Source of the DNA: Patescibacteria group bacterium
GTDB taxonomy: Bacteria > Patescibacteriota > Microgenomatia > UBA12405
Direction: 5' to 3'
DNA length: 64,000 bases
NCBI GenBank assembly: GCA_013387215.1
Contig: WARW01000022.1
Location: 92,612 to 156,611, forward strand
This document shows, piece after piece, positions 23,195 through 40,303 of the stretch (within the stretch, counting starts at the first letter, position 1; each line of letters starts with the position of its first letter). The notes beneath the pieces are model-generated. The model was not told the origin of the DNA, did not search any database, and saw only the letters and a list, made by a program, of their open reading frames with translations. The position numbers and the translations under genes are program-made.

Positions 23195-24193
23195 TTAACT
23201 GGCAATGTCGAGTGGTTTTTCCGAATTATTATTTAAAACTTGAGGAAGTAATCCGTAATCTTCTGCGAGTTTAATTAAATGATTTGTAATCATATCGCCA
23301 CGCTTGGCAACAATTTCATCGTTGGGAGTTAAAATATTTATAGTCAGATATCGACCGACTGCATCTTGTTTACGCCTATTTTCCATATTATCCTGTACCT
23401 CAGAAATTTTGGCTTTTGCAGAATCAGCTAAATTAGTTACTTTATCTTGTATATTTTTACCAACCTCGTCTGATTTAGATTGAAATGATTCTAAGGTTGG
23501 TTGAATATTTTCTTGAACTTTTTCTTTATTTTCATTTAAAGTATTAGATGTTTGATTAAATTTATCTCTTACTGTTGGCTTTAAATCTTCTGATTTTTCT
23601 TGAATGTTTGTTTTTGCGTCTTTTAAAATATTTTTAGATTTTTCAACACCTTCATTTATTTTTCCTTGTATACCTTGAGTTTTTTCCTGTTCTTTAATAG
23701 TTTCTTCCACTTGGGGTTTGACAATAATTACATCTTTACCAATTGTTTCTATTTGAGAAATATTCACATACTTCTTGCCAGATTTTAAATCCTTAAAACC
23801 GCCTTGAGAGACTTCAAATTTTTCAACATATCCAGTTGTTGGATCAAATAATAAATCTGAGATTGTGCCAAGTTCCACACCTGTATCAGTGACCACTCTA
23901 TTGCGAGTTATATATGTATCGTGTTTGGCGATTGATGAAATTTTTTCTCCTGCTTCACTAGAATTTATAATTAAATTATCATTTTCTATTATCAAAGCAT
24001 CATCTCCAATACTTTTAACGTTATTAATTAAAATTAATTTGGGGTCTGAAAATAGTCCACTTTTTTTAACAATAACTGCAGCAATTTTTTTCTCATCGGG
24101 GTCATAAATTAGATCTTCAACTTTACCTATTTCTTTGCCATCCTGAAGAGAAATTATTTTTAAACCAATTACGTTTGTACCTTTTATAGTCAT
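23195..24193 (-). CDS. PRC-barrel-domain protein (two PRC barrels plus a long C-terminal coiled coil)
   Basis: Repeated GxxVxxxxGxxxGxVxDxxxD pattern (GLKIISLQDGKEIGKVEDLIYD; VVTDTGVELGTISDLLFD). Lys/Glu-rich heptads. Confidence 0.55.
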   Translation of the reverse strand: MTIKGTNVIGLKIISLQDGKEIGKVEDLIYDPDEKKIAAVIVKKSGLFSDPKLILINNVKSIGDDALIIENDNLIINSSEAGEKISSIAKHDTYITRNRVVTDTGVELGTISDLLFDPTTGYVEKFEVSQGGFKDLKSGKKYVNISQIETIGKDVIIVKPQVEETIKEQEKTQGIQGKINEGVEKSKNILKDAKTNIQEKSEDLKPTVRDKFNQTSNTLNENKEKVQENIQPTLESFQSKSDEVGKNIQDKVTNLADSAKAKISEVQDNMENRRKQDAVGRYLTINILTPNDEIVAKRGDMITNHLIKLAEDYGLLPQVLNNNSEKPLDIAS

Positions 24194-24201
24194 ATTTTTA
24201 T

Positions 24202-24651
24202 TTAATTTTTAAAATTGTTTATTTTAGTTTTAATAATGCCTTTTTGCTTCCTAGTCCAAAGAGCCAAAATCAGTCCAAGAGCTATCAAAATTAAGGCTGC
24301 ATATGGTAAATAAGTAGATTTCCAATCAATAGTTTTATTATTTACTGCGTCGACAGAAAGGATGTTTCCATTGTTACCTGTAGTGATAGTAACCCTATCG
24401 TTTTGGGTTATGTCGTTTAAACTAGATTCCGATTGATTTTTAGTAATTTTGATATCATCGGGAATGTTGTAGTCTTTTACCCCATTGTCTGTTTCTACTG
24501 TTAGGGTTTTATCTTCTCTTCTTAATACAGTTCCCGAAGTTGTGTTATTGGGAATATTTTCAACAGCCAATGTAACCCAAGTCAAACTAACAATGAAAGT
24601 AATGAGAAGAGACAGCGTCAAAAAAAAACTTCTAATAAATTTTTTACTCAT
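24202..24651 (-). CDS. small bitopic surface protein (N-terminal signal anchor, beta-rich ectodomain, C-terminal TM plus basic tail)
   Basis: Hydrophobic N- and C-termini. The C-terminus reads TYLPYAALILIALGLILALWTRKQKG. Confidence 0.5.
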   Translation of the reverse strand: MSKKFIRSFFLTLSLLITFIVSLTWVTLAVENIPNNTTSGTVLRREDKTLTVETDNGVKDYNIPDDIKITKNQSESSLNDITQNDRVTITTGNNGNILSVDAVNNKTIDWKSTYLPYAALILIALGLILALWTRKQKGIIKTKINNFKN

Positions 24652-24792: not shown

Positions 24793-26715
24793 TTACTTTT
24801 GACCTAAAAAGAAAGACTGAACATCTTTATATTGGATTCGATTAGAAAAATCGCTATTAATTAAAGCCTCATTGCCACCCATACCCATATGCCAGTAGTT
24901 GAAACCAACTACACCGGGTCTTTTGGCAGCACCCATACTATTTTGAACTTGTTGTTCAACATCAGTAGTTCCAGCGCTACCCCATTCGCCTATTATGATT
25001 GGAACGTTTGGATATTTGGCTTGTAAATCATTCAATCCTTGATTCATTGTTTGACCAATAAGTTCTGGATAATGATCAATAGTTAAGTTGCCCATTTTTT
25101 GGACAGTGGCATCTTCCAAAATACCGTGCCAATCTGGATTATTACAACCCCAGACAACAAATCCATCTAGACCATAATAACCAACTTTCATTTGACCGCC
25201 TAGGCCAATAGAACTAAAGGCTTGATTTGATGTATCAATAGCGTCTCTGAGCCATTTATTAAAGTCTGCAATACTAGAATATTGGCATACACCTTGATCA
25301 CAACCAGTGAATCCTTGGATTCCACCGTTTTGTGGTTCTGGTTGAGGTGTGAAAATATCTCCAGCTGCAAATAAAGATGGATTATTTTTAATATAATCGG
25401 AAATCATAGTGAGATAATCAGCTTTGCTTTTATTAGCACCATATATTCCTTCAAATGTAATGTACATGTGCCGATGCCATACTTTCATGCCGCGAGCACG
25501 AATAGCGTCAACCCAAGCTTTAGTATAGGCAAGTGAGTTGCCACAAGATGGATTATCATATGGTGTTTCAACAGCAACATAATTAACTCCCAATTCTTTG
25601 GCTTTATCTAACCATTTACCAATAAAGGTTGGATCATCTTGACCACAAATTTTATCTTTGGTCTCTTTCATTGAGGAAACGCTTTGAATATCCCAAGTTT
25701 TGCCAGAATTTATTGGTGTAGGGGCAATGGTTGGCGTAACTGTAGGAATTGGATTAGATGTTGAGGAAATCAAACTATAGTTTAATTTTGCAACAGCATT
25801 TCCAGTGTTTTCATAATATTCCACTTTAATTTGATGATTACCTGCTGAAACTACCCGATCAGCTCCATCAGTTTTAAGAGCATGATCATTCCATTGATCA
25901 ATCAGCAAGTCGTTATCTAACCAGACTCGAATTCCATCGTCAGAATTAGTGATAAAACGATATGTACCCGCACTGAACGATTGGGTTTTGGTCCATCTGG
26001 CAACAAAATGATCGTTTGTTATTACTGAATTTGGTGAACCAGAACCCCAGTCAAAATTTATAGCACTATCTTGAGTGGTTAAAGTAGGAGAACTTGTTGG
26101 AATTTGAGGCGACGAAGAAACATTTGGTGTATTCCAATAGTTTCCAACGAAGTTATTTGAGTTTGTAACAACAGGAGTGGGTGTAGGCGTATTAGTCGGA
26201 GTTACTTGTGGCTGTGTAGAACCAACAACTTTTATACTCGTAATATCCACAGTAAATGGACCTGAATACCAAAATCTTGTATGAAGATCACCAACTGATT
26301 GGCTTAAGTTTAAACCAGAAAAATCGCTTAAATTTATATCAACAGTTTGAGGACCGTCAAAACAATTTTTGCCATAGTTAGACAAACTAACGTAATTCCA
26401 ATTATTAGATTGGTCAAAAATAAGCGCACTAGCATCACCGCTTAAAGCACAAAGTCCATGAAGATCATATGTAACTCTCAATGTACTGCTTCCTATAAGT
26501 GCTGAAGAATTTATAGATTGTCTTGCTTCAGATGCACCATTATTTCCAGTGAGATGCCAAGTTCCATTTAATAACTCGACATCACCGGCTGCATTGACCG
26601 ATTTATTATGAATAAATAAGCTGACAAAAAACGACAGACAAAGAAACGATAAAAAATATAGACGTTTTGATGAAAGTATCTTCATAGGGTGAATATTTTT
26701 TAAATAAATAAGCAA
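24793..26715 (-). CDS. secreted multidomain protein: signal peptide, beta-sandwich (CBM-like) domain, Thr/Pro linker, PA14 domain, Thr/Pro linker, clan-A (GH5-like) TIM-barrel glycoside-hydrolase-like domain
   Basis: Signal peptide. PA14 signature (YRFITNSDDGIRVWLDNDLLIDQW). Candidate catalytic Glu motifs (QPEPQNGG, IIGEWGSAG). Linkers TPTNTPTPTP and PIPTVTPTIAPTP. Confidence 0.7.
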   Translation of the reverse strand: MLIYLKNIHPMKILSSKRLYFLSFLCLSFFVSLFIHNKSVNAAGDVELLNGTWHLTGNNGASEARQSINSSALIGSSTLRVTYDLHGLCALSGDASALIFDQSNNWNYVSLSNYGKNCFDGPQTVDINLSDFSGLNLSQSVGDLHTRFWYSGPFTVDITSIKVVGSTQPQVTPTNTPTPTPVVTNSNNFVGNYWNTPNVSSSPQIPTSSPTLTTQDSAINFDWGSGSPNSVITNDHFVARWTKTQSFSAGTYRFITNSDDGIRVWLDNDLLIDQWNDHALKTDGADRVVSAGNHQIKVEYYENTGNAVAKLNYSLISSTSNPIPTVTPTIAPTPINSGKTWDIQSVSSMKETKDKICGQDDPTFIGKWLDKAKELGVNYVAVETPYDNPSCGNSLAYTKAWVDAIRARGMKVWHRHMYITFEGIYGANKSKADYLTMISDYIKNNPSLFAAGDIFTPQPEPQNGGIQGFTGCDQGVCQYSSIADFNKWLRDAIDTSNQAFSSIGLGGQMKVGYYGLDGFVVWGCNNPDWHGILEDATVQKMGNLTIDHYPELIGQTMNQGLNDLQAKYPNVPIIIGEWGSAGTTDVEQQVQNSMGAAKRPGVVGFNYWHMGMGGNEALINSDFSNRIQYKDVQSFFLGQK

Positions 26716-26973: not shown

Positions 26974-27474
26974 ATGAATGCCAATAATGCAGTTCTGATC
27001 GTTTTAATTATCGGGTTGGCAGTTATTGGTGTTTTGATTTTTTCTAAAAGTAACAATACAAATTTGACTAGTTTGAGTTCTCCATCGCCAGAAGTTACTA
27101 CTGTATATGAAGAACCGCCTAGCCCAAGTGAAACTGTTAAATCTCCAATCAACGTCGTATTAAATTCATCAAACAAAAATAATAAGCAGAGTGGGGCAGC
27201 TGTTTTATCTGAAAGTAATGGAAAAGTAACAATTGTAATCAATGCAATTCCAGTTGTTAAAACGAGTTCTCAAACAGTAAGCATAAATAGTGGTGATTGC
27301 TCAAACCTTGGAAAAACCATTTATCAATTAAACAATTTAGTCAAAGGTAAATCGACGACACTTATTGACACGAATCTTCAGGAATTAACCGCAAAAATAC
27401 CTTTAGCAATAAGTATCCATGAACCAAATTCTTCTTCAAATGCATATATAGCCTGTGGCAGCGTTAAGAAATAA
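26974..27474 (+). CDS. membrane-anchored Ser/Thr/Pro-rich extracytoplasmic protein
   Basis: N-terminal TM, then SSPSPEVTTVYEEPPSPSE. The C-terminal domain carries two Cys. Confidence 0.45.
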   Translation: MNANNAVLIVLIIGLAVIGVLIFSKSNNTNLTSLSSPSPEVTTVYEEPPSPSETVKSPINVVLNSSNKNNKQSGAAVLSESNGKVTIVINAIPVVKTSSQTVSINSGDCSNLGKTIYQLNNLVKGKSTTLIDTNLQELTAKIPLAISIHEPNSSSNAYIACGSVKK

Positions 27475-30400: not shown

Positions 30401-31458
30401 ATAATTGTGAACTTACTTTTTTTTGTGCCGGTGATGGAAGCAGCCTGAGTGAAGAAACTGTTGATGGGATAAAAATTATAAGAAAAGGCAATATGTATAC
30501 CGTTCCTATTTGGGCTTTTATTAATTATATTTTTCGATTTAGAGGCAAGTACGATTTAATAATCGATGTTGCTAAAGGAATTCCCTTTTTCACACCTTTA
30601 TACAGCAGCATTCCAGTTATCGGGGTTATTCATCATATCCATCAAAAAATGTTTTTGAGTGGGCTGCCATTCCCGTTGAATCGAATCGCTATGACTATAG
30701 AAGCCAACTTTTTGCCTGCAATTTATAAAAATACAGATATGATAACCGTTTCAAAATCCTCAAAATCTGCAATGAGCGATATTGGTTTTGATATAAAAAG
30801 AATACGAATTGCTAATCCGGGAGTGAAAATAAAAATTAACAAAAAAATTAATAAATCCACAAAACCAACATTAATTTATTTGGGACGACTTAAGCAATAT
30901 AAACATATTGATAACATTATTATTGCTTTAGCAAAAATTAAAAAATACCATCCAGAAACTAAATTAATTATTGCCGGAACTGGCGATAATGAAGAATATT
31001 TAAGAGAGTTAACTAGAGATTTGAAACTAGAAAAATCTGTTGATTTTATGGGTAAGGTTTCCGAAGAAGATAAGCCAAGCTTACTGGGAAAAGCTTGGAT
31101 AGCAATACAACCTTCTGAGGTTGAAGGTTGGGGCATAACAAATATTGAAGCGAACATGTGCGGTACTCCAGTAATTGCATCAGACGTAGACGGATTAAAA
31201 GATTCTGTAATAGATGGAAAAACTGGAATTTTGGTTCCAGTGAACAACATTAATTCTCTTGCTAAAGCAGTGATTGATCTTATTGAGGATGATGTTTATA
31301 GAACTTATTTAACTAATAACGCAATTAAATGGAGCAAAAGATTTAAATGGCATAAAAGCGGAAAAATATTTATTGATTTGATAAATCAAAAGCTTAAAAA
31401 ACAAAGTGAAGAGTATGGTGTGGTTGAGAATGAAAATTTGGAGGGAGTATATGAATAG
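27490..31458 (+). CDS. 1322-aa fusion: TM-flanked processive GT2 synthase domain, Wzx/MOP-like multi-TM domain (~12 TM), C-terminal GT4 (Glycos_transf_1) domain
   Basis: GT2 motifs D…DAED…TED…QRSRW are all present (aa ~120-350). Residues ~500-900 are almost entirely hydrophobic helices, like a polysaccharide-biosynthesis flippase. The C-terminal EGWGITNIEANMCGTPVIASDVDGLKDSVIDGKTGILV matches GT4. One uninterrupted ORF. Confidence 0.8.
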   Translation: MENTSNKIFRIKPRDFKSTIGAGVVFKEKRFITHTLLDESKSAVITFARWQKVIILLFLLSLITGLILFPLKTLGLFVGFLSVVYFIDVLFNLYVIFKSLYFPPEIIVKDEDIKNINDLELPTYSILCPLYKESEVIKQFLTNINNIDWPKNKLDVLLLLEEDDLITQEAAKNIDLPKYVRVIIVPNSLPKTKPKACNYGLQLAKGKYLVVYDAEDLPDPLQLKKAYLTFQKVPKNVYCLQAKLNYYNSSQNLLTRLFTAEYSLWFDVVLPGLQSINTSIPLGGTSNHFRTNDLIKLQGWDPFNVTEDCDLGIRLFKEGYKTAIFDSTTLEEANSNVGNWIRQRSRWIKGYLQTYFVHTRNPISFIKDFKFHALIFQLIIGLRISFILINPILWLTTIAYFVFYKYVGSTIELLYPPFIFYIAAFSLLIGNFIYLYNYMIGCAKKEQWSILKFVYLVPFYWVLMTSSAVMAIHQLIFKPYFWEKTNHGLNVQKEKRPIFGPVFANLGLFFKDIREADLVLVLAAIGVNFLNFLYNAFLSRNVNIEGFGLISLISNFFLLVSIPIYSLSATVANKTAFFLGKYKISIKDFWSITRKRTISVGFVVAIIWLTLIPFLMLFFQANSPIPFILFTPILIIGLVGAVDSGFLSGNLRFKDIALLIMIEAFLKLVLSIYIVELGFPNLVYAAIPVSMIVSFVMAWMFARNIVPESKVTSENTISFPVGFFSTSFLIKFSLIAFLSFDVLLAKHFLSPIESGKYALIALAGKMIFFISTLFSQFLIPLISKSEGANNNSNKIFGKIFLISIFSSLVLYIGIGLFGNITAPILFGSNIKSVTQLLPVYGLAILCFTISNNIETFQLIKNDKIFPTLSFLIAILQIIGISIFHNSIQDIVLIMTVVSILSILFVTIISLNYQYINSSLIKLSEIFIGNKYNVNENNKYRILIFNWYDIKNKWSGGAEIYIHKIANYLAKNNCELTFFCAGDGSSLSEETVDGIKIIRKGNMYTVPIWAFINYIFRFRGKYDLIIDVAKGIPFFTPLYSSIPVIGVIHHIHQKMFLSGLPFPLNRIAMTIEANFLPAIYKNTDMITVSKSSKSAMSDIGFDIKRIRIANPGVKIKINKKINKSTKPTLIYLGRLKQYKHIDNIIIALAKIKKYHPETKLIIAGTGDNEEYLRELTRDLKLEKSVDFMGKVSEEDKPSLLGKAWIAIQPSEVEGWGITNIEANMCGTPVIASDVDGLKDSVIDGKTGILVPVNNINSLAKAVIDLIEDDVYRTYLTNNAIKWSKRFKWHKSGKIFIDLINQKLKKQSEEYGVVENENLEGVYE

Positions 31459-32374
31459 GACATTGTTAGTAAACATCGGAATTCCCGCATATAACGAAAT
31501 GCAGAACATCGGGAAATTATTAGAATCTCTACAATCTCAAAATTTTCAAGAATTTAAGATAAACAATATATTGGTTGTATCTGATGGCAGCACCGATGAC
31601 ACAGATAGAATCGTAAAAAAATTTAAAAATAAAAAAATAAAATTGATTAGTGATAAAAAAAGAAACGGAGTGGCTATTAGACTTAATCAAATTATAAAGC
31701 TAACCGATACGGATATTTTAGTTATTTTAAATGCCGATATTTTACCTAAAGATTCTAATTTTATTGATCATTTGGTTAAGCCGATAATACATTATAATGC
31801 CGACTTAACATCAGCAGCAATTAGACCCGTTACTCCTACAAAATGGTTTGAAAAAATTGTTGGAGTAGGCGAAAAAATAAAAACTAGTTTTTTTGAAGAT
31901 TATTTAAAGGGTAATAATTTTTATACTTGCAGAGGGACCGCTAGAGCATTTTCTAAAAGATTTTATAAAAAGATTGTGTTTCCAAACAAAATTGGCGACG
32001 ATTCTTATTCGTATTTATATTGTGTGTCTAATAATTATAAATACTTTTTTGCAGACCAGGCGATTATTTATTTTAAATTACCAGATAGTTATAAAGATTT
32101 TAAAAAACAAATAGTTAGGTTTTTAAAAATTAAAGAGAATTTTTCTTTGGTTTTTGGAACGAAACAAATAAATAAAAATTTATATTTTTCAAAATTTAAG
32201 TTTATTAAAAAAACATTTTCTTATTTTTTACACGATATTATGGGGACGGTTCTGTATTCAATGCTTTACACGTATGTACGAATAGACAGTTTATTCGCAA
32301 GAAGCGATAGCTCTGGTGCTTGGGAAACTTCAAAAAGCACTAAATTATTAAACAATTTATATGAAACAAAATAA
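31451..32374 (+). CDS. GT2 family glycosyltransferase
   Basis: NIGIPAYNEMQNI…VVSDGSTDDT. Start ATG at 31451 overlaps the upstream stop (ATGAATAG). GGAGG lies 4 nt upstream. Confidence 0.75.
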   Translation: MNRTLLVNIGIPAYNEMQNIGKLLESLQSQNFQEFKINNILVVSDGSTDDTDRIVKKFKNKKIKLISDKKRNGVAIRLNQIIKLTDTDILVILNADILPKDSNFIDHLVKPIIHYNADLTSAAIRPVTPTKWFEKIVGVGEKIKTSFFEDYLKGNNFYTCRGTARAFSKRFYKKIVFPNKIGDDSYSYLYCVSNNYKYFFADQAIIYFKLPDSYKDFKKQIVRFLKIKENFSLVFGTKQINKNLYFSKFKFIKKTFSYFLHDIMGTVLYSMLYTYVRIDSLFARSDSSGAWETSKSTKLLNNLYETK

Positions 32375-33185
32375 ACAACTTTTTAGATATGAAAATGTTT
32401 TGATACCAATAAGAAAAATTGTATATCTTGTTCTTTGTTTTTATGATCAATATATTTTAAAAAACTATAATAAAACTTTTGTTGTTTGTTATCACAGTAT
32501 TTCCAGTGATGATTGGAGATTTAGCATAAATCCAGAAAATTTTAAAAAACAAATTAATTATTTATCAAAAAATTACCAGTTTATTAATGCAGATCAGCTT
32601 CTTAATTATTTAGAAAACAAAGACAATTTAAGTAAACCATCGATCCTTATATGCTTTGATGATGGTTATAAAGATTTATTATCGATAAAAAACTATTTAT
32701 ATCAGAAAAATATAAAACCATTATTATTTCTAATCTCTAAAACTAAAGGTGTTAACCGAAAGGAATTAAAAAATAGAAAACAACTTTTAAACAAAAATGA
32801 TATAAAAACGCTCATGGATTTTGGTTGGACAATTGGCTCACACGGCCTGACTCATTCTAATTTTTTCAAATTGAATAAGTTGCAAAAAGAATCAGAAATA
32901 ATTATTTCAAAAAAGACTTTAGAAAAAAAATTTAGAGTAGATATTAAATATTTTTCTTTTCCAAAGGGAAATTATTCTATTGAAGATATCGAAATTTTAA
33001 GAAGAGCAGGTTATAAGTTGGCTTTTTCTATGGAAGATAGAATTTTAGTCCAACAAATTAATCCCTATATTATTCCTCGAATCGGAGTCGATAAAACTCA
33101 TAATTTTAATGAATTTAAATCACTTTTTTCACCTTCTGTAATAAAAGTTAGAAATGTTTTTAAAAAATTTTTATCCTATGTCTAA
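32361..33185 (+). CDS. polysaccharide deacetylase (NodB/CE4)
   Basis: ICFDDGYKDL, HGLTHSNF and later His motifs. Confidence 0.75.
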   Translation: MKQNKQLFRYENVLIPIRKIVYLVLCFYDQYILKNYNKTFVVCYHSISSDDWRFSINPENFKKQINYLSKNYQFINADQLLNYLENKDNLSKPSILICFDDGYKDLLSIKNYLYQKNIKPLLFLISKTKGVNRKELKNRKQLLNKNDIKTLMDFGWTIGSHGLTHSNFFKLNKLQKESEIIISKKTLEKKFRVDIKYFSFPKGNYSIEDIEILRRAGYKLAFSMEDRILVQQINPYIIPRIGVDKTHNFNEFKSLFSPSVIKVRNVFKKFLSYV

Positions 33186-33891
33186 TAATTTGATTAATAT
33201 ACTAAATTTAGCCCGATCTAAAACCAGTAGGTTTGTTAAACCTAGAAAAAATTATTTTATTTTTACAAACCCACAAAGAAGTTTGAGGCCAGTGAGCAAA
33301 TTATATGGATTTGACAGAGGGACACCGATCGACAGGTATTATATTGAAAAATTTTTAGAAAATAATAAAGTTTTAATTTATGGGAGATGTTTGGAGATAC
33401 ATGACAATTTTTATACAAAAAAATTTGGAGAGGAAAGGGTTACTGTAAGCGATGTCTTGGATATAAATCCTGATAATTTTCAGGCAAATATTCATGGAGA
33501 TTTGAGAAATTTATCCAATATCGAAAATGAAACCTATGATTGTTTAATAGTTACTCATACCTTGGGAATAATCGATGATTACAATTCGGTAGTGAAAGAA
33601 TGTTATCGAATATTAAAAAAAGGTGGATACCTGCTTTTAACTTCTTCATTTATCGGGCCGCTTTATGACAAAGAAAATACTTTTTGGAAATTTACACCTA
33701 AGTCTTTAGACTATATATTTTCAAAAATATTTTTAAATTCTAAAGCTGAAATTACAACGTATGGGAATGTTTTGGTCTGCCAATGTTTTTTGGCTGGTTT
33801 TTCATTAGAAGAACTTAAACGAGAAGAACTTGAATATAACGATTCTAATTTTCCATTAGTAGTTTGTTTAAAGGTAAGAAAAAGTTTATGA
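33178..33891 (+). CDS. class I SAM-dependent methyltransferase
   Basis: CLEIHD…VLDIN… (motif I-like) and …RILKKGGYLLLT (post-II). ATGTCTAA overlap with the upstream stop. Confidence 0.6.
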   Translation: MSNNLINILNLARSKTSRFVKPRKNYFIFTNPQRSLRPVSKLYGFDRGTPIDRYYIEKFLENNKVLIYGRCLEIHDNFYTKKFGEERVTVSDVLDINPDNFQANIHGDLRNLSNIENETYDCLIVTHTLGIIDDYNSVVKECYRILKKGGYLLLTSSFIGPLYDKENTFWKFTPKSLDYIFSKIFLNSKAEITTYGNVLVCQCFLAGFSLEELKREELEYNDSNFPLVVCLKVRKSL

Positions 33892-35093
33892 AAAACAAAC
33901 ATATTGATGTAATCGTTAAGTATTTTTATCCGGTCGTTGCAGGAATTGAAACAAACATATTGGAAACGTATAGCATTTTAGCTAAAGAAGGGTGGGATAT
34001 TACTATTCATACTTCCAAAGATGTATATATGTGTAAAAATTGCTTAAGCGACAAAGAAAAATATAGAGGATTAAGAATAGTTCGATATAAGTTTTCTTTT
34101 TTTGGTTTTTTTCCCAAAATTGATTGGAGTAATACTAGTTTGGTATGTCTTCACAATTTTGATGTTTTCCCTCATTTTAGAATTCTTATATATAGTTTGT
34201 ATTTGAAAATTTTAGATAAAAAATATTTTGGTCTAATATTAACTCCCCATGGCGGCTTTAATCCAGAATGGTCTATTTATTCAAAAGCAATTGGCTTCAT
34301 AAAAAAGTTGTATCACTTTACATTTGGAGCTATTTTAATAAATTTAGTAGTTGATGGAATCAGGGCGGTTTCAGATTGGGAAAAAGAAGAAATTATTTCT
34401 AAGAATGTAAAAAAAGAATTAGTCGTAGTTATTGATAATGGAATTGAAACTGAGGCATTTTTGAATCTCGAAAAACTGGCTAGCAAGGAAATAAAAAACC
34501 AAGTAAGTATTTTTGGAGATTATATTATTCAAATAGGCAGAATCTATCCGATTAAGAACTATGAAACAACGATAATTGCCTTAAATAGTCTTCCTAAAAA
34601 TCTTAAATATATAATTGTTGGACCCATTAGCGATAAAAAATATTTTGATAATTTAAATATTTTAATAAACAAATTCAATTTAAATGATCGCGTTAAATTT
34701 GTGGGGGTGATAAAAGGAATCGATAAATATTACCTTATCAAACACGCTCAAATGATGGTGCACATGGCTTTATGGGAAAGTTTTTGCAATGTTGTTCATG
34801 AAGGCTTAAGTCAAGGCTTGGTGTGCATAGTGGCCAACAATACCGCTCTACCCTATTTGGTTAAGGATGGAATAAATGGATATTGTGTAGAAACAAAAGA
34901 TTTTAATGAATTGGCAAAAAAAATCAATTTTGTTTTGAAGAACAAAGAAACTCCAATGATAAAAGAAATGGAGGAAATTAACAGAAATTATGGCCGAATT
35001 AATAGCTGGAAAAATGTGGCGAATAAAATGAATTCTTTTTATAAGTACAAACTTAACATGTTTACTAATCATGAAAAACTATGGTCAGTCTAA
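33888..35093 (+). CDS. GT4 family glycosyltransferase
   Basis: Glycos_transf_1 C-terminal block (…SFCNVVHEGLSQGLVCIVANNTALPYLVKDGINGY). ATGA overlap with the methyltransferase stop. Confidence 0.75.
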   Translation: MKNKHIDVIVKYFYPVVAGIETNILETYSILAKEGWDITIHTSKDVYMCKNCLSDKEKYRGLRIVRYKFSFFGFFPKIDWSNTSLVCLHNFDVFPHFRILIYSLYLKILDKKYFGLILTPHGGFNPEWSIYSKAIGFIKKLYHFTFGAILINLVVDGIRAVSDWEKEEIISKNVKKELVVVIDNGIETEAFLNLEKLASKEIKNQVSIFGDYIIQIGRIYPIKNYETTIIALNSLPKNLKYIIVGPISDKKYFDNLNILINKFNLNDRVKFVGVIKGIDKYYLIKHAQMMVHMALWESFCNVVHEGLSQGLVCIVANNTALPYLVKDGINGYCVETKDFNELAKKINFVLKNKETPMIKEMEEINRNYGRINSWKNVANKMNSFYKYKLNMFTNHEKLWSV

Positions 35094-36715
35094 ATTTAAA
35101 GAATAACTGGTTTAATGTTTTATATTATTTAATTTGTATATTAATATTGGTTTTAAGTCTGCGAGGAATTCCGGGGAATCCAAAAGATTTAGAATTAAAT
35201 ACTTCAACTTGGAAAGAAAATGGACCTTTGGAATTATCTACAGACAGAGGAAGATTCGCTTTAACTTATTCTTTATTAGAGAATAAATCTTTTAATTTTT
35301 CTTTAAATATTGCTAAGTTTGCAACTCCAGATTTGGGATATTTCAATGGCAAGTTTGTTTCCTTGTTTGATCCTGGTTTATCATTTTTGGTTATACCAGG
35401 ATATATTATTGGGAAACTATTAGGAGCTGCACAAGTCGGGACTTTTGCCATTATTTCTATCTTTGCGCTTTTAAATGTCTTTCTAATTAGAAAGTTATCA
35501 GAAGAACTTGGAGCTAATAAAATTATGTCTGCGATAGCTGGTTTAGTATTTTTATTTGCAACACCGGCTTTTACTTATAGTGTTACTTTGTATCAACACC
35601 AAATTACAACTTTTATTATTTTGCTGTCTACTTTTCTTTTAATAAAATATGATAATTTTTGGACATTGGCTTTAGTATGGATGCTTCTTGGATTGTCGTT
35701 TGCCATTGATTATCCAAATGCAGTTTTGGTTTTTCCACTAGTAATTTTGGCAATTAAAAAAATATTTTCTATCGATATTCAAAAAAACAGAATTTTATTT
35801 AGATTAAAGAGTTTATACATATTAAGTTTATTAACAGTACTTATACCAATCAGCTTTCTTCTTTGGTTCAATAAAAATTCATACAATAAATATTTTCAAC
35901 TGGCAGGTACGGTTACTCAAGTTACAGGGTTTGATAATAACACTCCTATAAATAATAGATATGTTATTGAAGATGCAACAAAGTATGTAAGCCCAGACAG
36001 AAAAAGCGGTTTTTTGGGAAGCTTTTTTTATACAAGAAATTTGCTTGAAGGATTTTATATTTTATTTTTAAGTCCAGACAGAGGAATTGTGAATTATACG
36101 CCTGTAATTCTTTTGGGATTAGGCGGAATTATTGTGGCTTATAAAAGGAAAATGGAATTACTGCCATTTTTGTTTTCAATAATCGGATTGAATATTCTTT
36201 TGTATGCCATGTGGGGAGACCCTTGGGGCGGATGGGCTTTTGGATCAAGATACTTAATACCTACCTATGCTATTCTTTCTATTTTTATTTCCATATTTTT
36301 AACAAAATATAGAAAATATTTAATCTTGTTGCCAATATTTTTAATTTTGTTTTCTTATTCAGTTTTTGTAAATACTGCCGGTGCTATTACTACTAATGCA
36401 ATACCACCTCAAGTTGAAGTGCTTGATTTGGAAAAAGCTTCCAACAGTATTCAAAAATATACTTATCAAAAAAATTTTGATTATTTGAGCATGAATAAAT
36501 CGAAATCATTTGTTTACCAATTAATCGGCAAAAATTATATGAGTTCCTGGAGATACTTTTATGTTTTGTATACATTAATTATGTCTTTAAGCGTGGGTTT
36601 ATTAGTTGTTCAATATGCAGATAATTTTAAAAAAATATTTTCAAAAATCTCCATTAATGTTTTTCGAAAAACATTACCTCTTAATATTAATTTTTTAAAG
36701 AGAAAATATGACTAA
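35081..36715 (+). CDS. GT-C-fold (PMT/ArnT-like) polytopic membrane glycosyltransferase, putative
   Basis: About 12 TM. Asp/Arg-containing first extracytoplasmic loop (LSTDRGRFALTYSL). Overall topology like GT39/GT83. Confidence 0.55.
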   Translation: MVSLNLKNNWFNVLYYLICILILVLSLRGIPGNPKDLELNTSTWKENGPLELSTDRGRFALTYSLLENKSFNFSLNIAKFATPDLGYFNGKFVSLFDPGLSFLVIPGYIIGKLLGAAQVGTFAIISIFALLNVFLIRKLSEELGANKIMSAIAGLVFLFATPAFTYSVTLYQHQITTFIILLSTFLLIKYDNFWTLALVWMLLGLSFAIDYPNAVLVFPLVILAIKKIFSIDIQKNRILFRLKSLYILSLLTVLIPISFLLWFNKNSYNKYFQLAGTVTQVTGFDNNTPINNRYVIEDATKYVSPDRKSGFLGSFFYTRNLLEGFYILFLSPDRGIVNYTPVILLGLGGIIVAYKRKMELLPFLFSIIGLNILLYAMWGDPWGGWAFGSRYLIPTYAILSIFISIFLTKYRKYLILLPIFLILFSYSVFVNTAGAITTNAIPPQVEVLDLEKASNSIQKYTYQKNFDYLSMNKSKSFVYQLIGKNYMSSWRYFYVLYTLIMSLSVGLLVVQYADNFKKIFSKISINVFRKTLPLNINFLKRKYD

Positions 36716-38306
36716 CTATACATTTTCTATTCCTGTTAATTTTTGGAAAAATACAGGTTTAGTATTAGAAAAAAATTTAAAGTTAATTGTAGGAATAATT
36801 TTGGTAATAATTTCCATTACCGCATTTGTTTATTATTGGAGAAACGGACTAGGAATCGCATATAACGATGCGAGATCACACTTAGATATTGGGCGCCGAG
36901 TTATTGAAGGATTAAAACCTGGGTTAGCTCAACTTGGCTCTGTTTGGTTGCCATTGCTGCATTTCTTGATGATTCCTACAATTTGGAATAATTTTATGTG
37001 GCATTCCGGACTTTCAGGAGCATTGGTTTCGATGATTTCTTTTGTATTTTGCGGACTTTTGATTTATCAATTTCTAGAACAATTAGGGGTTGGAAAAGTT
37101 GGTCGATTAACTGGTGTAATTATTTTTGCAGCTAATCTGAATATATTATATTTGCAATCCACAGCCATGACAGAACTGTTGCTTTTAGCTACGATGACGG
37201 CTGGTTCATATGAATTATTGATTTGGCACAAAACAGGCAATTATTTAAATTTAGTTAAATCAGCGATTTGGATAATGCTTTCCACTTTAACTCGATATGA
37301 TGGGTGGTTTTTATTGTTCTATGCCACTCTTTTAATAATTATTAATGTAGTAAAAAAGAAAAGTTACAAAACAGCAGAAGGCACTTTGATTTTATTTTTG
37401 ACTATGGCCGCTTTAGGGGTGGTTTTGTGGTTTTTGTGGAATTTATTAATCTTTAAAGATCCTTTTTATTTTATTACTGGTCCATTTTCAGCAAAGGCAC
37501 AGCAAGATTTATTGTCTAACGCAGGCGTATTACCAACTAAGGGAAACTTTTTTTTATCCATGAAGGTCTATTTATATGCCTTGATGTATAACACTCAAAC
37601 TTTTCCGTCAATACTTGGATTAATTGGGGCAATTATATTGTGGTTTGATAATAAGATAAACAGATCCATAAAAATGGCATCAACGGTACTTTTAGCACCA
37701 TTATTTTTTAATATAATAGCTTTATATATTGGACACTCGGTTTTATATGTACAAGGGATATCTGGAAACACCTGGTTTAATGTTAGGTATGGAATTATGC
37801 TCCTACCATCAATTGCTATATTTATTGGATACTTAATCGATAAATTAAAACCGTTTAGGGTAGTTTTAATTTCACTTATTTTATTTACTTCATTTTTTTC
37901 AATAGTAAGCGGGGATGCAGTAACAATAGATGATGCAAAATTTGGTTCCAGCCAAAAAAACGTTACTGAAATAAGCGAGTGGCTTAAAGAAAATGTGACT
38001 AACGAAAATAGTTATATTTTAATTTCCGTTGCTTCACACGATGCAATTGTTTTTTCCTCTGGATTACCAATGAAACGTTTTATACATGAAGGGACTGGAG
38101 ACTATTGGAATAAAGCGATAATAAACCCGGATAAATACGCAAAATATATTATTATGAGAACTAATGATGCAACAGATATGACTTTTAGATTGGTCGGCAA
38201 ATCACCTGGATTTAGCCGATATCAAAAAATTTCTAGTTTTCCTTTCGCAGACATATATGAATTAAGACCAGAATATTGGAATAATTTAGCAACAAACACA
38301 AAATGA
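36708..38306 (+). CDS. second GT-C-fold membrane glycosyltransferase, putative
   Basis: About 12 TM. First loop YNDARSHLDIGRRV. Large C-terminal extracytoplasmic domain. ATGACTAA overlap with the upstream stop. Confidence 0.55.
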   Translation: MTNYTFSIPVNFWKNTGLVLEKNLKLIVGIILVIISITAFVYYWRNGLGIAYNDARSHLDIGRRVIEGLKPGLAQLGSVWLPLLHFLMIPTIWNNFMWHSGLSGALVSMISFVFCGLLIYQFLEQLGVGKVGRLTGVIIFAANLNILYLQSTAMTELLLLATMTAGSYELLIWHKTGNYLNLVKSAIWIMLSTLTRYDGWFLLFYATLLIIINVVKKKSYKTAEGTLILFLTMAALGVVLWFLWNLLIFKDPFYFITGPFSAKAQQDLLSNAGVLPTKGNFFLSMKVYLYALMYNTQTFPSILGLIGAIILWFDNKINRSIKMASTVLLAPLFFNIIALYIGHSVLYVQGISGNTWFNVRYGIMLLPSIAIFIGYLIDKLKPFRVVLISLILFTSFFSIVSGDAVTIDDAKFGSSQKNVTEISEWLKENVTNENSYILISVASHDAIVFSSGLPMKRFIHEGTGDYWNKAIINPDKYAKYIIMRTNDATDMTFRLVGKSPGFSRYQKISSFPFADIYELRPEYWNNLATNTK

Positions 38307-39535
38307 TTGCATTAGTTGCCTCGTTTGTGGTTTCGTTATTTTCTTTAAATAATAATTTAACTATTAATGATTCTTGGTGGAAAGTTCAGTCTGTTGACAC
38401 GGTAAAATATTCACGTGATCTGGCTAGAAGTGAAATTTCAAACCCAAATTTGGATTCAATTATTGACGAGCAAGTTAAAGATATTGCTGATATTGGGGCA
38501 AATTATGTTGCTATTGATACTCCATATGATGAAGAGTTTAGGCCCTATTTAATAAAATGGGTTGAAAGTGCAAGAAGACACAATCTTAATGTTTGGTTTC
38601 GAGGTAATTTTTCCGGTTGGGAAAAATGGTTTGATTATCAGTCTATTAGCAGCGAGGATCATTTAAAAATGACGAGTAATTTTATTTTAAACAATCCCGA
38701 TTTGTTTAAAGATGGTGACATTTTTACGGCTTGCCCTGAGTGTGAAAACGGAACAATAGGCGATCCAAGAAGCACTGGTAATTTAGATGAATATCGCTCG
38801 TTTATGATTAATGAATATCAAATAACAAAAAATGATTTTAAAAAAATTAATAAAAAGGTTATTTCAAACTTTAATTCGATGAATGGAGATGTAGCAATGG
38901 CAGTGATGGATAAACCGACAACACAGTCAATGGATGGAATTGTGACAATAGACCATTATGTGGCGGATCCAGAAAAAATAACTGATTATATAAATCTTAT
39001 AAGTGAAAATAGTGGAGGAAAAATTGTTTTAGGTGAATTTGGCGCTCCTATCCCCGATTTAAACGGTAATCTGGATGAAGATCAACAATCTATATGGATT
39101 AATGAAGCCTTAAATAAAATAGCTCAGTCAAATAATATTATTGGAATAAATTATTGGACTAACATAAATTCAACTACCCAACTATGGAATAATAATGGTA
39201 TCCCTAGAAAGGCCGTTAGTATCGTGAAAAATTATTATTCACCTCAAATATTAAGAGGGTCTATTAAAAATGAGATCGGACAAGCAGTTAGAAATGCCGA
39301 TGTGTATATTGCCAATAAGTCAACAAAATCTGATAATAATGGATATTTTTCAATACCATATATAAACCACAATACTAACGTAAATATTTATAGTCCCGAT
39401 TATATGCATCAGATAATATCTATTGATGATTTCAAAAAAAACGGAAAAGCAATTTTAATTAAATATCCAGAAGACTTTTGGTTTAGAGCGGAGAAATTAT
39501 TTTATTCTATATATACCAGCCGCTTCCGGAGGTAA
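38303..39535 (+). CDS. clan-A glycoside-hydrolase-like protein (paralogue of the 24793-26715 catalytic domain) with C-terminal CarboxypepD_reg-like domain
   Basis: Shares NYVAIDTPYD, GDIFTACPECENG, IDHY and LGEFGAP blocks with the PA14 protein. C-terminal GSIKNEIGQAVRNADVYIANKSTKSDNNGYFSI. ATGA overlap. Confidence 0.65.
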   Translation: MIALVASFVVSLFSLNNNLTINDSWWKVQSVDTVKYSRDLARSEISNPNLDSIIDEQVKDIADIGANYVAIDTPYDEEFRPYLIKWVESARRHNLNVWFRGNFSGWEKWFDYQSISSEDHLKMTSNFILNNPDLFKDGDIFTACPECENGTIGDPRSTGNLDEYRSFMINEYQITKNDFKKINKKVISNFNSMNGDVAMAVMDKPTTQSMDGIVTIDHYVADPEKITDYINLISENSGGKIVLGEFGAPIPDLNGNLDEDQQSIWINEALNKIAQSNNIIGINYWTNINSTTQLWNNNGIPRKAVSIVKNYYSPQILRGSIKNEIGQAVRNADVYIANKSTKSDNNGYFSIPYINHNTNVNIYSPDYMHQIISIDDFKKNGKAILIKYPEDFWFRAEKLFYSIYTSRFRR

Positions 39536-40303
39536 CATGCTGGCAATTTTAGGCATAATAAAACGAGTCGGCATAAAATCGTTATGAGTATAAATTTCTT
39601 TGGCTGTAACTATTGTTTTTTGAGATGGAACACAAAGACTTCGAGTGGAAGGATCAAAGAGTCTGTATGAACCATCAATAGAAACCGGCAAAACACAAAA
39701 TTTGGTTTTATCTTTTAAAAATCTTGTTACAATTCCGTCAAAAGAATTATCCTCTTTTACCTCTACCATGCCATTAATTATTCCATTTTCATTAATTCTT
39801 CCGCCTTTTAGAGTGCCTTCCGGTAAAAATATTATTCCGAAATTATCTTTGTGGGCTGATATTAATTTTTTAAGATTATCTGAGTTTTTATCTTCTATTC
39901 CATATCTTTTTATGTCTTCTTCTCGTGTGACAGGTATCAAATTAACACCTCTTTGCTGACATACCGGTGTCAGTTTTTCTACTAAATACCTGACTTCTTC
40001 ACCCTGATCACCTGAACAAATTGAACTAGCTATCGGTAAATAAAAACCGTTAAAACCATCAACTTTTATTTTGCTTGTAATCATGGAAATAGCGAGTCCG
40101 TCAGCGTGACTTTGATGATTACTTACTATAAGAGGCATGTAGCCTTCTTTAATTAAGGTGGAAAAATCGGAAATTAACTGTTGATTACAATTCAACTCGA
40201 AGTTATTAAAAATATTGCCCAATTCAGAGACTGATCTTTTCTCTGGTACTTGAGCCATTAATGTACCTTCATTCTTATTTGTGATTATAAGTTTTTCTGA
40301 CAT
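39497..40303 (-). CDS. 1-acyl-sn-glycerol-3-phosphate acyltransferase-like (PlsC family)
   Basis: HxxxxD motif (NHQSHADG) and downstream EGT/PEGT block (FLPEGTLKGG). Confidence 0.7.
   Translation of the reverse strand: MSEKLIITNKNEGTLMAQVPEKRSVSELGNIFNNFELNCNQQLISDFSTLIKEGYMPLIVSNHQSHADGLAISMITSKIKVDGFNGFYLPIASSICSGDQGEEVRYLVEKLTPVCQQRGVNLIPVTREEDIKRYGIEDKNSDNLKKLISAHKDNFGIIFLPEGTLKGGRINENGIINGMVEVKEDNSFDGIVTRFLKDKTKFCVLPVSIDGSYRLFDPSTRSLCVPSQKTIVTAKEIYTHNDFMPTRFIMPKIASMLPPEAAGIYRIK

Follow-up and report, generated by a model that had tools for sequence, protein, structure and literature searches.

Two related glycanase-like domains encoded beside a run of glycosyltransferase genes raise the question of whether such proteins serve the sugar polymer made at the same locus or act on glycans from elsewhere. 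The locus lies in a stretch of 64,000 nucleotides from a Patescibacteria group bacterium (assembly GCA_013387215.1, contig WARW01000022.1, positions 92,612 to 156,611), referred to here as the window, in whose coordinates all positions are given. One of the two domains belongs to the product of gene A, on the reverse strand, and the other to that of gene B, the last gene of a forward-strand operon in which it follows two polytopic membrane proteins, M544 and M532, that are labelled glycosyltransferase C (GT-C)-like (Table 1). A first-pass annotation of the window, made from the sequence alone, had regarded the pair as a duplicated and diverged glycanase and had suggested either dedicated processing of the locus product or recognition of host or partner-cell glycans. 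The reading favoured here, which is considered reasonably probable, is that A and B are ancient paralogs within an unclassified, Patescibacteria-restricted group of glycosidases of the glycoside hydrolase clan A (clan GH-A) type, acting on the operon glycan by the mechanism proposed below. Both proteins carry predicted export or anchor signals and accessory modules of carbohydrate-binding type, and trimming or remodelling of the operon's sugar polymer is their probable role.

The relationship between the two domains is evident on pairwise alignment, the check that had been proposed for it. Residues 341-608 of A (numbered throughout on a 640-residue version of the protein) align with residues 26-285 of B at 28% identity (BLASTP, E 6e-24), and the A-type and B-type profiles align over 283 columns with a probability of 100% (hhalign, E 1.2e-41), a similarity far beyond chance. 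The four collinear motif blocks that had been read in the C-terminal ~300 residues of A and the N-terminal ~300 residues of B are all present and in the same order: NYVAVETPYD in A and NYVAIDTPYD in B, GDIFTPQPEPQNG in A and GDIFTACPECENG in B, TIDHY in both, and finally GEWG in A and GEFG in B. The paralogy of A and B is thereby confirmed, and theirs are the only two copies of the domain within the window. Identity to A is at least 56% for A-type proteins and at most 33% for the remaining relatives, and this sharp gap shows the duplication to be old, with A-type and B-type proteins as separate clades. A recent local duplication was ruled out on the same ground, and the earlier proposal of duplication and divergence is retained as one of homologous paralogs with an ancient split.

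Scans with Pfam and NCBIfam returned no match to the shared domain of A and B. Searches of PDB sequences with the A domain, with a combined A and B profile and with a B-type profile gave no significant glycosidase match; the best profile matches were GH5 endoglucanases (E 0.34-1.2, non-significant), aligned at GE[FW]G ... YW. The fold itself was predicted with confidence. An AlphaFold2 (AF2) model of residues 330-640 of A, built from a 42-sequence alignment, has a pLDDT of 92.8 and a pTM of 0.91 and contains eight strands with helices after each (strands 14-18, 50-53, 82-86, 125-127, 186-188, 215-218, 244-249 and 273-278 by DSSP, in model numbering), which is the (beta/alpha)8 TIM-barrel arrangement of clan GH-A. 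In Foldseek the top 50 PDB matches of the model (E ~3e-9, TM up to 0.71, identity 9-16%) all belong to clan GH-A, comprising GH5 (including GH5_18), GH164, GH2, GH30 and GH53. The nearest structures are the GH5_18 beta-mannosidases 9y4v and 7lr7, GH5 mannanases and endoglucanases, the GH164 beta-mannosidase 6t5o, and GH113. The description of A and B as paralogous domains resembling clan-A glycoside hydrolases is upheld by this predicted barrel and its structural matches.

Membership of several existing families was considered and rejected. Against GH5 (Cellulase, PF00150) the A domain scores 16.7 bits, below the cutoff of 23.5 and over 44 residues, and B has no match; neither A nor B matches Glyco_hydro_cc (PF11790) at E <=1. 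Among 89 divergent representatives of the family, Glyco_hydro_cc (nine representatives, best E 9e-6) and Cellulase/GH5 (four) are the only catalytic Pfam families touched, in each case partially, and the two are themselves of the GH-A type. One homolog in which the barrel is fused to a GT-C-like protein, P0302, scores 26.2 bits against a Glyco_hydro_cc threshold of 21, over profile positions 139-225 of 237 only. There is thus a likeness to Glyco_hydro_cc in the region of strands 6 to 8, seen in nine of the 89 divergent members and in P0302, but these matches span ~85 of the 237 profile positions and the family differs in that A and B themselves do not match. A peptidoglycan hydrolase with a lysozyme-type barrel was also considered, and no such structure is among the top structural matches. 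From the predicted structure, the group is a candidate new family of clan GH-A.

Candidate catalytic residues were sought in 393 sequences aligned to the family hidden Markov model, a set made up of A-type proteins, B-type proteins and divergent representatives of clusters at 50% identity. The proposed nucleophile (A-E577, B-E245) is Glu in 378 of 380 relatives and falls within the last residues of model strand 7, where clan GH-A has its nucleophile; HMMER aligned A-E577 to the GEFG of the GH5 endoglucanases 6kdd and 5ljf, although with non-significant E-values. At the position of the proposed acid/base (A-E460, B-E146), all but one of 387 relatives (386) have Glu. In the 89 divergent representatives the counterpart of E460 (E704) is still invariant and that of E577 (E821) nearly so. 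Around these residues, R415, which follows strand 3, is invariant (384/384), as are D354 and D547, and H548, Y549 and W608 are kept in about 94-98% of sequences, with D547-H548-Y549 ending strand 6 and Y607-W608 ending strand 8. R415, H548-Y549 and W608 recall the set of Arg/His, His-Tyr and Trp residues in GH5. An Asn-Glu dyad (the NEP-type motif) at strand 4 is canonical in GH5, and here the family differs, having Pro-Glu-x-x-Asn in its place: the residue before the acid/base candidate is Pro in 361 of 387 relatives, and in 365 of 386 a conserved Asn stands at the third position past the Glu. The earlier expectation that structure prediction would put the two Glu at GH5-type positions, on strands 4 and 7, is borne out for strand 7. 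For strand 4 (125-127) the model is consistent only, with E460 coming four residues after the strand, in the region of the GH-A acid/base, and the NEP-like dyad that had been read at this site is replaced.

The loss of the canonical dyad would fit a different reading, in which the barrel is a non-catalytic pseudo-glycosidase that binds glycan, or acts as a scaffold, and presents the acceptor to the GT-C-like enzyme; extracytoplasmic carbohydrate-binding domains are frequent on GT-C enzymes. Nevertheless, both Glu residues and the His/Tyr/Trp set are kept in more than 94% of the 393 sequences and across deeply diverged clades, as is typical of active enzymes, and a pseudo-glycosidase is considered very improbable.

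The family is widespread. An exhaustive profile search among 1.84 billion representatives found 647 clusters at 50% identity, and 371 loci encoding a relative were found among 185,579 species genomes. A-type relatives number 208 clusters, at 57-77% identity, and B-type relatives 2314 clusters. Those record titles of relatives that are informative all name Patescibacteria, and the family appears, by its known sequences, to be restricted to that group; A-type loci include Gottesman-, Levy- and Shapirobacteria, and B-type loci include Ames-, Woese-, Curtiss-, Davies-, Roizman-, Moran- and Paceibacteria. Many records of metagenome-assembled genomes titled 'uncultured Gammaproteobacteria' or 'Pseudomonadales' (binchicken/SRP co-assemblies) hold a Patescibacteria-type locus at 60-70% identity, including those designated L007, L012, L015, L016 and L019 among the loci compared, and many others, and one such record is titled 'Clostridia'. 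These titles look like placeholder or wrong labels.

Mapping of the window proteins onto 80 loci showed a strong association of B with the operon and a weak one of A. In 43 of 46 B-type loci the gene directly upstream of the B-type gene, in the same orientation, is M532-like, preceded usually by M544 and by several of the genes for the glycosyltransferase family 2 (GT2)-GT4 fusion, GT2, the CE4 deacetylase and GT4. In the window, the start codon of B and the stop codon of M532 share the letters ATGA, a 4-nt overlap, and B closes a tightly packed operon in which successive genes overlap, as the first-pass annotation had held in placing one copy inside a biosynthetic operon. In addition, seven cluster representatives are single-polypeptide fusions, six with an M532-like and one with an M544-like part, followed by the barrel and a CarboxypepD_reg domain; in P0302 the C-terminal barrel half is 40% identical to B. 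The GT-C-like membrane domain of these fused homologs joins where the N-terminal hydrophobic segment of B sits, a segment that from its sequence is a probable membrane anchor or signal. These natural fusions, of the Rosetta-stone kind, indicate that the B-type barrel is physically tied to the GT-C-like protein at the outer face of the membrane.

The CarboxypepD_reg domain that had been claimed for B itself falls below threshold there (PF13620/PF13715, 20.9 bits against a cutoff of 32.3). Its homologs speak in favour of the assignment: 29 of the 89 representatives match CarboxypepD_reg (best E 2.7e-11), and the B-type profile matches the SusC N-terminal domain 9hfj (E 0.0012). Across the family the accessory modules include PA14, CBM_4_9, F5/8 type C, PKD, Big_1 and CarboxypepD_reg, a set typical of carbohydrate-active and surface proteins.

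The operon core of M544, M532 and B-type barrel, usually with the GT2-multi-transmembrane-GT4 fusion and one or more GT2 genes and often with CE4 and GT4, recurs in dozens of Patescibacteria lineages (L037-L083), and its product may be a major envelope glycan shared across the lineage. In the window, the 1322-residue fusion protein contains GT2 Pfam domains followed by VTEDCDLG (TED) and QRSRW motifs, and so carries the TED and QxxRW signature of processive GT2 enzymes. The CE4 deacetylase has PgaB/IcaB as its closest NCBIfam models, far below their cutoffs, and its presence hints at an N-acetylhexosamine content of the polymer. Neither the GT2 part nor M532 matched any PDB sequence, and M544 and M532 have no Pfam match of their own even at E 1; in NCBIfam both match the LA_3751/LA_3752 putative glycosyltransferase family below threshold. 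They are called GT-C-like because their homologs and fused forms carry the Pfam domain PMT_2, a marker of GT-C enzymes. A GtrB-type role for the small GT2, making polyprenyl-phosphate sugars for use by the GT-C-like proteins, was considered and rejected, since no clear transmembrane helix pair is seen at its C-terminus. As called mechanically, this gene starts at a GTG and overlaps the end of the 1322-residue gene by 53 nt (31406-31458); an ATG at residue 16 (MNRTLLVNIGIPAYNE) is a more likely start, with which the overlap would be 8 nt.

A glycanase gene conserved within the operon is a feature of polysaccharide-synthesis systems of the Bcs/Ccs, Pga and Pel types, and the gene of B, a putative glycanase, shares it, at the frequency of upstream M532-like genes given above. 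The clostridial cellulose synthase operon encodes CcsZ, a membrane-tethered GH5 endoglucanase (PMC8892547). B resembles CcsZ in being a predicted extracytoplasmic, membrane-tethered GH-A barrel, and resembles both CcsZ and BcsZ in that the operon of its gene has at its centre a membrane GT2 bearing motifs of the synthase type. In contrast to CcsZ, B is not GH5 by sequence, and the BcsZ of proteobacterial bcs operons, a GH8 enzyme, has the unrelated (alpha/alpha)6 fold. The present locus further differs from both systems in that the direct partner of B is a GT-C-like protein, fused to a B-type barrel in some genomes; in having a second paralog, A, with carbohydrate-binding module (CBM)-like and PA14 modules; and in a CE4 deacetylase in the operon. 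A more distant parallel is offered by AtMAN2 and AtMAN5 of Arabidopsis, described as atypical membrane-anchored endo-beta-1,4-mannanases that are needed for glucomannan synthesis (PMC13181414). Like the proposed B, they have an N-terminal transmembrane anchor and are glycanases that serve polysaccharide synthesis and not degradation; their setting is eukaryotic and Golgi-type, and the likeness is one of analogy only.

The fusion of the barrel to a GT-C-like protein suggests a constructive, assembly-line role, and it bears on another explanation, in which the barrels are mainly transglycosylases or ligases that form a glycosyl-enzyme on the nucleophile Glu, transfer the chain to a glycan or wall acceptor and so cross-link or anchor the polymer together with the GT-C-like enzyme. 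Fungal enzymes of GH72 and GH17, which belong to clan GH-A, transglycosylate and thereby cross-link or anchor polymer, and the retaining machinery of the clan is compatible with such a reaction. A transferase and a hydrolase are not separable from sequence, but the closest structural matches are hydrolases, and a predominantly transferring role for the barrels is regarded as improbable. A related and more specific proposal is that of a Patescibacteria-specific two-enzyme machine in which the B-type GH-A barrel, as a transglycosylase or ligase, works with its GT-C-like partner in building, cross-linking or anchoring a lineage-specific envelope glycan and not in degrading it; this is held to be doubtful. 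If it were true, the family would count as a new one in CAZy, and its role would lie in biosynthesis.

Gene A presents a different picture. Its mechanical open reading frame, 24793..26715 on the reverse strand, starts at a TTG and gives 640 residues; public annotation starts at the ATG at 26685, giving 630, and an identical 630-residue sequence is present in the public collection. The parts of the protein follow in the order signal peptide, beta-sandwich, Pro/Thr linker, PA14 domain, second Pro/Thr linker and barrel, the signal peptide likely being cut before AGD to judge by its residues. PA14 is clearly present, as had been claimed (PF07691, 66.8 bits against a cutoff of 24, E 2.3e-18). The N-terminal beta-sandwich has no sequence-family match in the Pfam scan, and the CBM-like label given to it earlier is supported at the level of the predicted fold: its AF2 model is all-beta (pLDDT 92.0), the best PDB match in Foldseek is a CBM30 (1wzx, E 2.4e-4, TM 0.57), and of eight PDB structures matched at E <=0.001, seven are CBM30 or CBM11. 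Most A-type relatives carry this module (73 proteins), and PA14 among them is an occasional addition.

Similar modules occur elsewhere around such loci. Several consecutive matches to the CBM-like module of A adjoin the barrel gene on the opposite strand in L039 (7199-10987), the module also opens the gene just downstream of the A-type gene in L018, L023, L024 and L025, and proteins with repeated PA14 stand between M532 and B in L049, L067 and L068. Going by these arrangements, CBM-like and PA14 binding modules seem to have been reshuffled within such loci.

The architecture of A, with its signal peptide, CBM30/CBM11-like module, Pro/Thr linkers, PA14 and barrel, is that of a classic secreted polysaccharidase. 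It would fit an explanation in which A, and less likely B, is a secreted glycanase directed against environmental or host-surface beta-glycans, for nutrition or for attachment of an episymbiont, and is unrelated to the operon. The gene also forms a separate transcription unit with a terminator-like hairpin of its own. It had been described as convergent, but it is in fact divergent from the forward-strand operon, which starts at 26974/27490. A GT-C-like, M532-like gene lies directly upstream in only eight of 28 A-type loci, and since this link is so loose, recognition or degradation of foreign glycans is kept as an alternative for A. Where A-type neighbourhoods are conserved, however, they are always the same. 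In L005, L008, L009, L017 and L019 a short module (about 4-10 kb in) consists of only the GT2 synthase-like part (~500 residues) of the 1322-residue fusion, an M532-like gene and an A-type gene; in L014 and L020 the genes M544, M532, A', A and B stand in a row; and in Gottesmanbacteria (L001) the A-type gene heads a homologous operon. The short module, the usual form among the eight linked loci, suggests that GT2, GT-C-like protein and barrel together make up a minimal functional unit. Moreover, very high conservation within one lineage (57-77% identity) is more easily reconciled with a substrate of the cell's own than with a variety of foreign ones, and a scavenging role clashes with B, which is fused to GT-C-like proteins. 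A role for A on foreign glycans unrelated to the operon is judged unlikely, although it keeps some weight. The suggestion of dedicated processing enzymes for the locus product is strengthened for B, by its conserved position and the GT-C-like fusions, and is weaker for A.

In the mechanism proposed for the favoured reading, that of paralogous glycosidases acting on the operon glycan, A and B would be extracytoplasmic enzymes, retaining beta-glycanases or possibly transglycosylases. Catalysis would proceed by double displacement, A-E577/B-E245 serving as the nucleophile and A-E460/B-E146 as the acid/base. B, tethered beside the GT-C-like proteins, would cut, trim or release the nascent envelope glycan, in the manner of BcsZ or, as the closer precedent, CcsZ at cellulose operons. 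A would be secreted in soluble form, and its CBM-like and PA14 modules may bind the same or a related beta-glycan, allowing remodelling in trans. Several observations weigh against this reading. The acid/base candidate is preceded by Pro and not Asn, and its Glu is four residues beyond the DSSP strand; further invariant acids (D354, E422, D453 and D547) could take part in a non-canonical catalysis. The A-type gene adjoins operon genes in only the eight of 28 loci already given, for which reason its link to the operon is called weak, and any operon gene is present in 13 of 31 A-type loci. Finally, the GT2 of the 1322-residue fusion has CelA and PgaC/IcaA as its best NCBIfam matches, far below their cutoffs.

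Table 1. Positions in the window of genes A and B, their parts and the genes of the operon (residues of A in 640-residue numbering)
Feature	Positions	Strand	Basis or remark
Terminator-like hairpin directly past the A stop codon	24745..24767	-	10-pair stem then T-run; consensus match only
Gene A	24793..26685	-	630 aa from ATG at 26685; mechanical open reading frame extends to TTG at 26715
Clan GH-A-like (beta/alpha)8 barrel of A (aa 341-636)	24808..25695	-	predicted
Codon of A-E577 (model E248), proposed nucleophile, motif I-I-G-E-W-G	24985..24987	-	
Codon of A-E460 (model E131), proposed acid/base, motif F-T-P-x-P-E-x-x-N-G	25336..25338	-	
Pro/Thr-rich linkers around PA14 of A	26143-26205 and 25696-25773	-	sequence
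PA14 domain of A (aa 192-314)	25774..26142	-	Pfam PF07691
N-terminal beta-sandwich of A (aa 43-170, 128 aa), CBM-like fold	26206..26589	-	AF2 model and Foldseek
Signal peptide of A, predicted, MKILSSKRLYFLSFLCLSFFVSLFIHNKSVNA	26590..26685	-	read from sequence; MKILSS...KSVNA/AGD
GT2-multi-transmembrane-GT4 fusion, 1322 aa	27490-31458	+	Pfam
GT2	31406-32374	+	Pfam
CE4 polysaccharide deacetylase	32361-33185	+	Pfam
Methyltransferase	33154-33891	+	Pfam
GT4	33864-35093	+	Pfam
M544, polytopic membrane protein, GT-C-like	35081-36715	+	
M532, polytopic membrane protein, GT-C-like	36708-38306	+	
Gene B, 410 aa, last gene of the operon	38303..39535	+	open reading frame; identical to public protein P0121
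N-terminal hydrophobic segment of B (MIALVASFVVSLFSL...)	38303..38377	+	read from sequence
Clan GH-A-like barrel of B (aa 26-313)	38378..39241	+	homology to A barrel
Codon of B-E146, counterpart of A-E460	38738..38740	+	
Codon of B-E245, counterpart of A-E577	39035..39037	+	
CarboxypepD_reg-like beta-sandwich, C-terminal in B	39251..39532	+	Pfam PF13620 E 4.8e-4, below cutoff

The genes that surround the pair add some further detail. A is flanked by two small membrane-anchored proteins, one of 166 residues (26974-27474, forward strand), whose gene lies directly before that of the GT2-GT4 fusion, and one of 149 residues (24202-24651, reverse strand), and neither has a family match. Two genes downstream of A, a protein of 332 residues (23195-24193, reverse strand) contains a pair of PRC-barrel domains (Pfam E 5.6e-20) together with a long helical tail that resembles apolipoproteins, and homologs of it occur near A-type genes in L007 and L009 too. 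Beyond B, an open reading frame of 268 residues (39497..40303, reverse strand) is convergent with it, the 3' ends overlapping by 39 nt; it has a weak Acyltransferase match (Pfam E 0.005), and its translation holds NHQSHAD.

A GH-A barrel accompanied by carbohydrate-binding modules is already known, as is a glycanase inside a polysaccharide-synthesis operon. What is new is a family that is unannotated and highly conserved, that seems to be confined to Patescibacteria, and whose B form is coupled, and sometimes fused, to a GT-C-like protein; a literature search found no paper on this family or operon, nor on the fusion of a GT-C-like protein with a GH-type barrel. The Patescibacteria, or candidate phyla radiation, are a huge and mostly uncultured radiation whose cell-envelope chemistry is almost unknown. 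Within it, a family annotated as 'hypothetical' (some 650 clusters at 50% identity; 371 loci among species-representative genomes) gains a testable function and four candidate catalytic residues, and is nominated as a candidate new glycoside hydrolase family of clan GH-A. Among the glycan-synthesis operons of the Patescibacteria this one ranks with the most conserved, and the family is an integral, sometimes fused, part of it. If the favoured reading is true, its enzymes could be used to dissect, and perhaps to strip, the surface glycan of these episymbionts.

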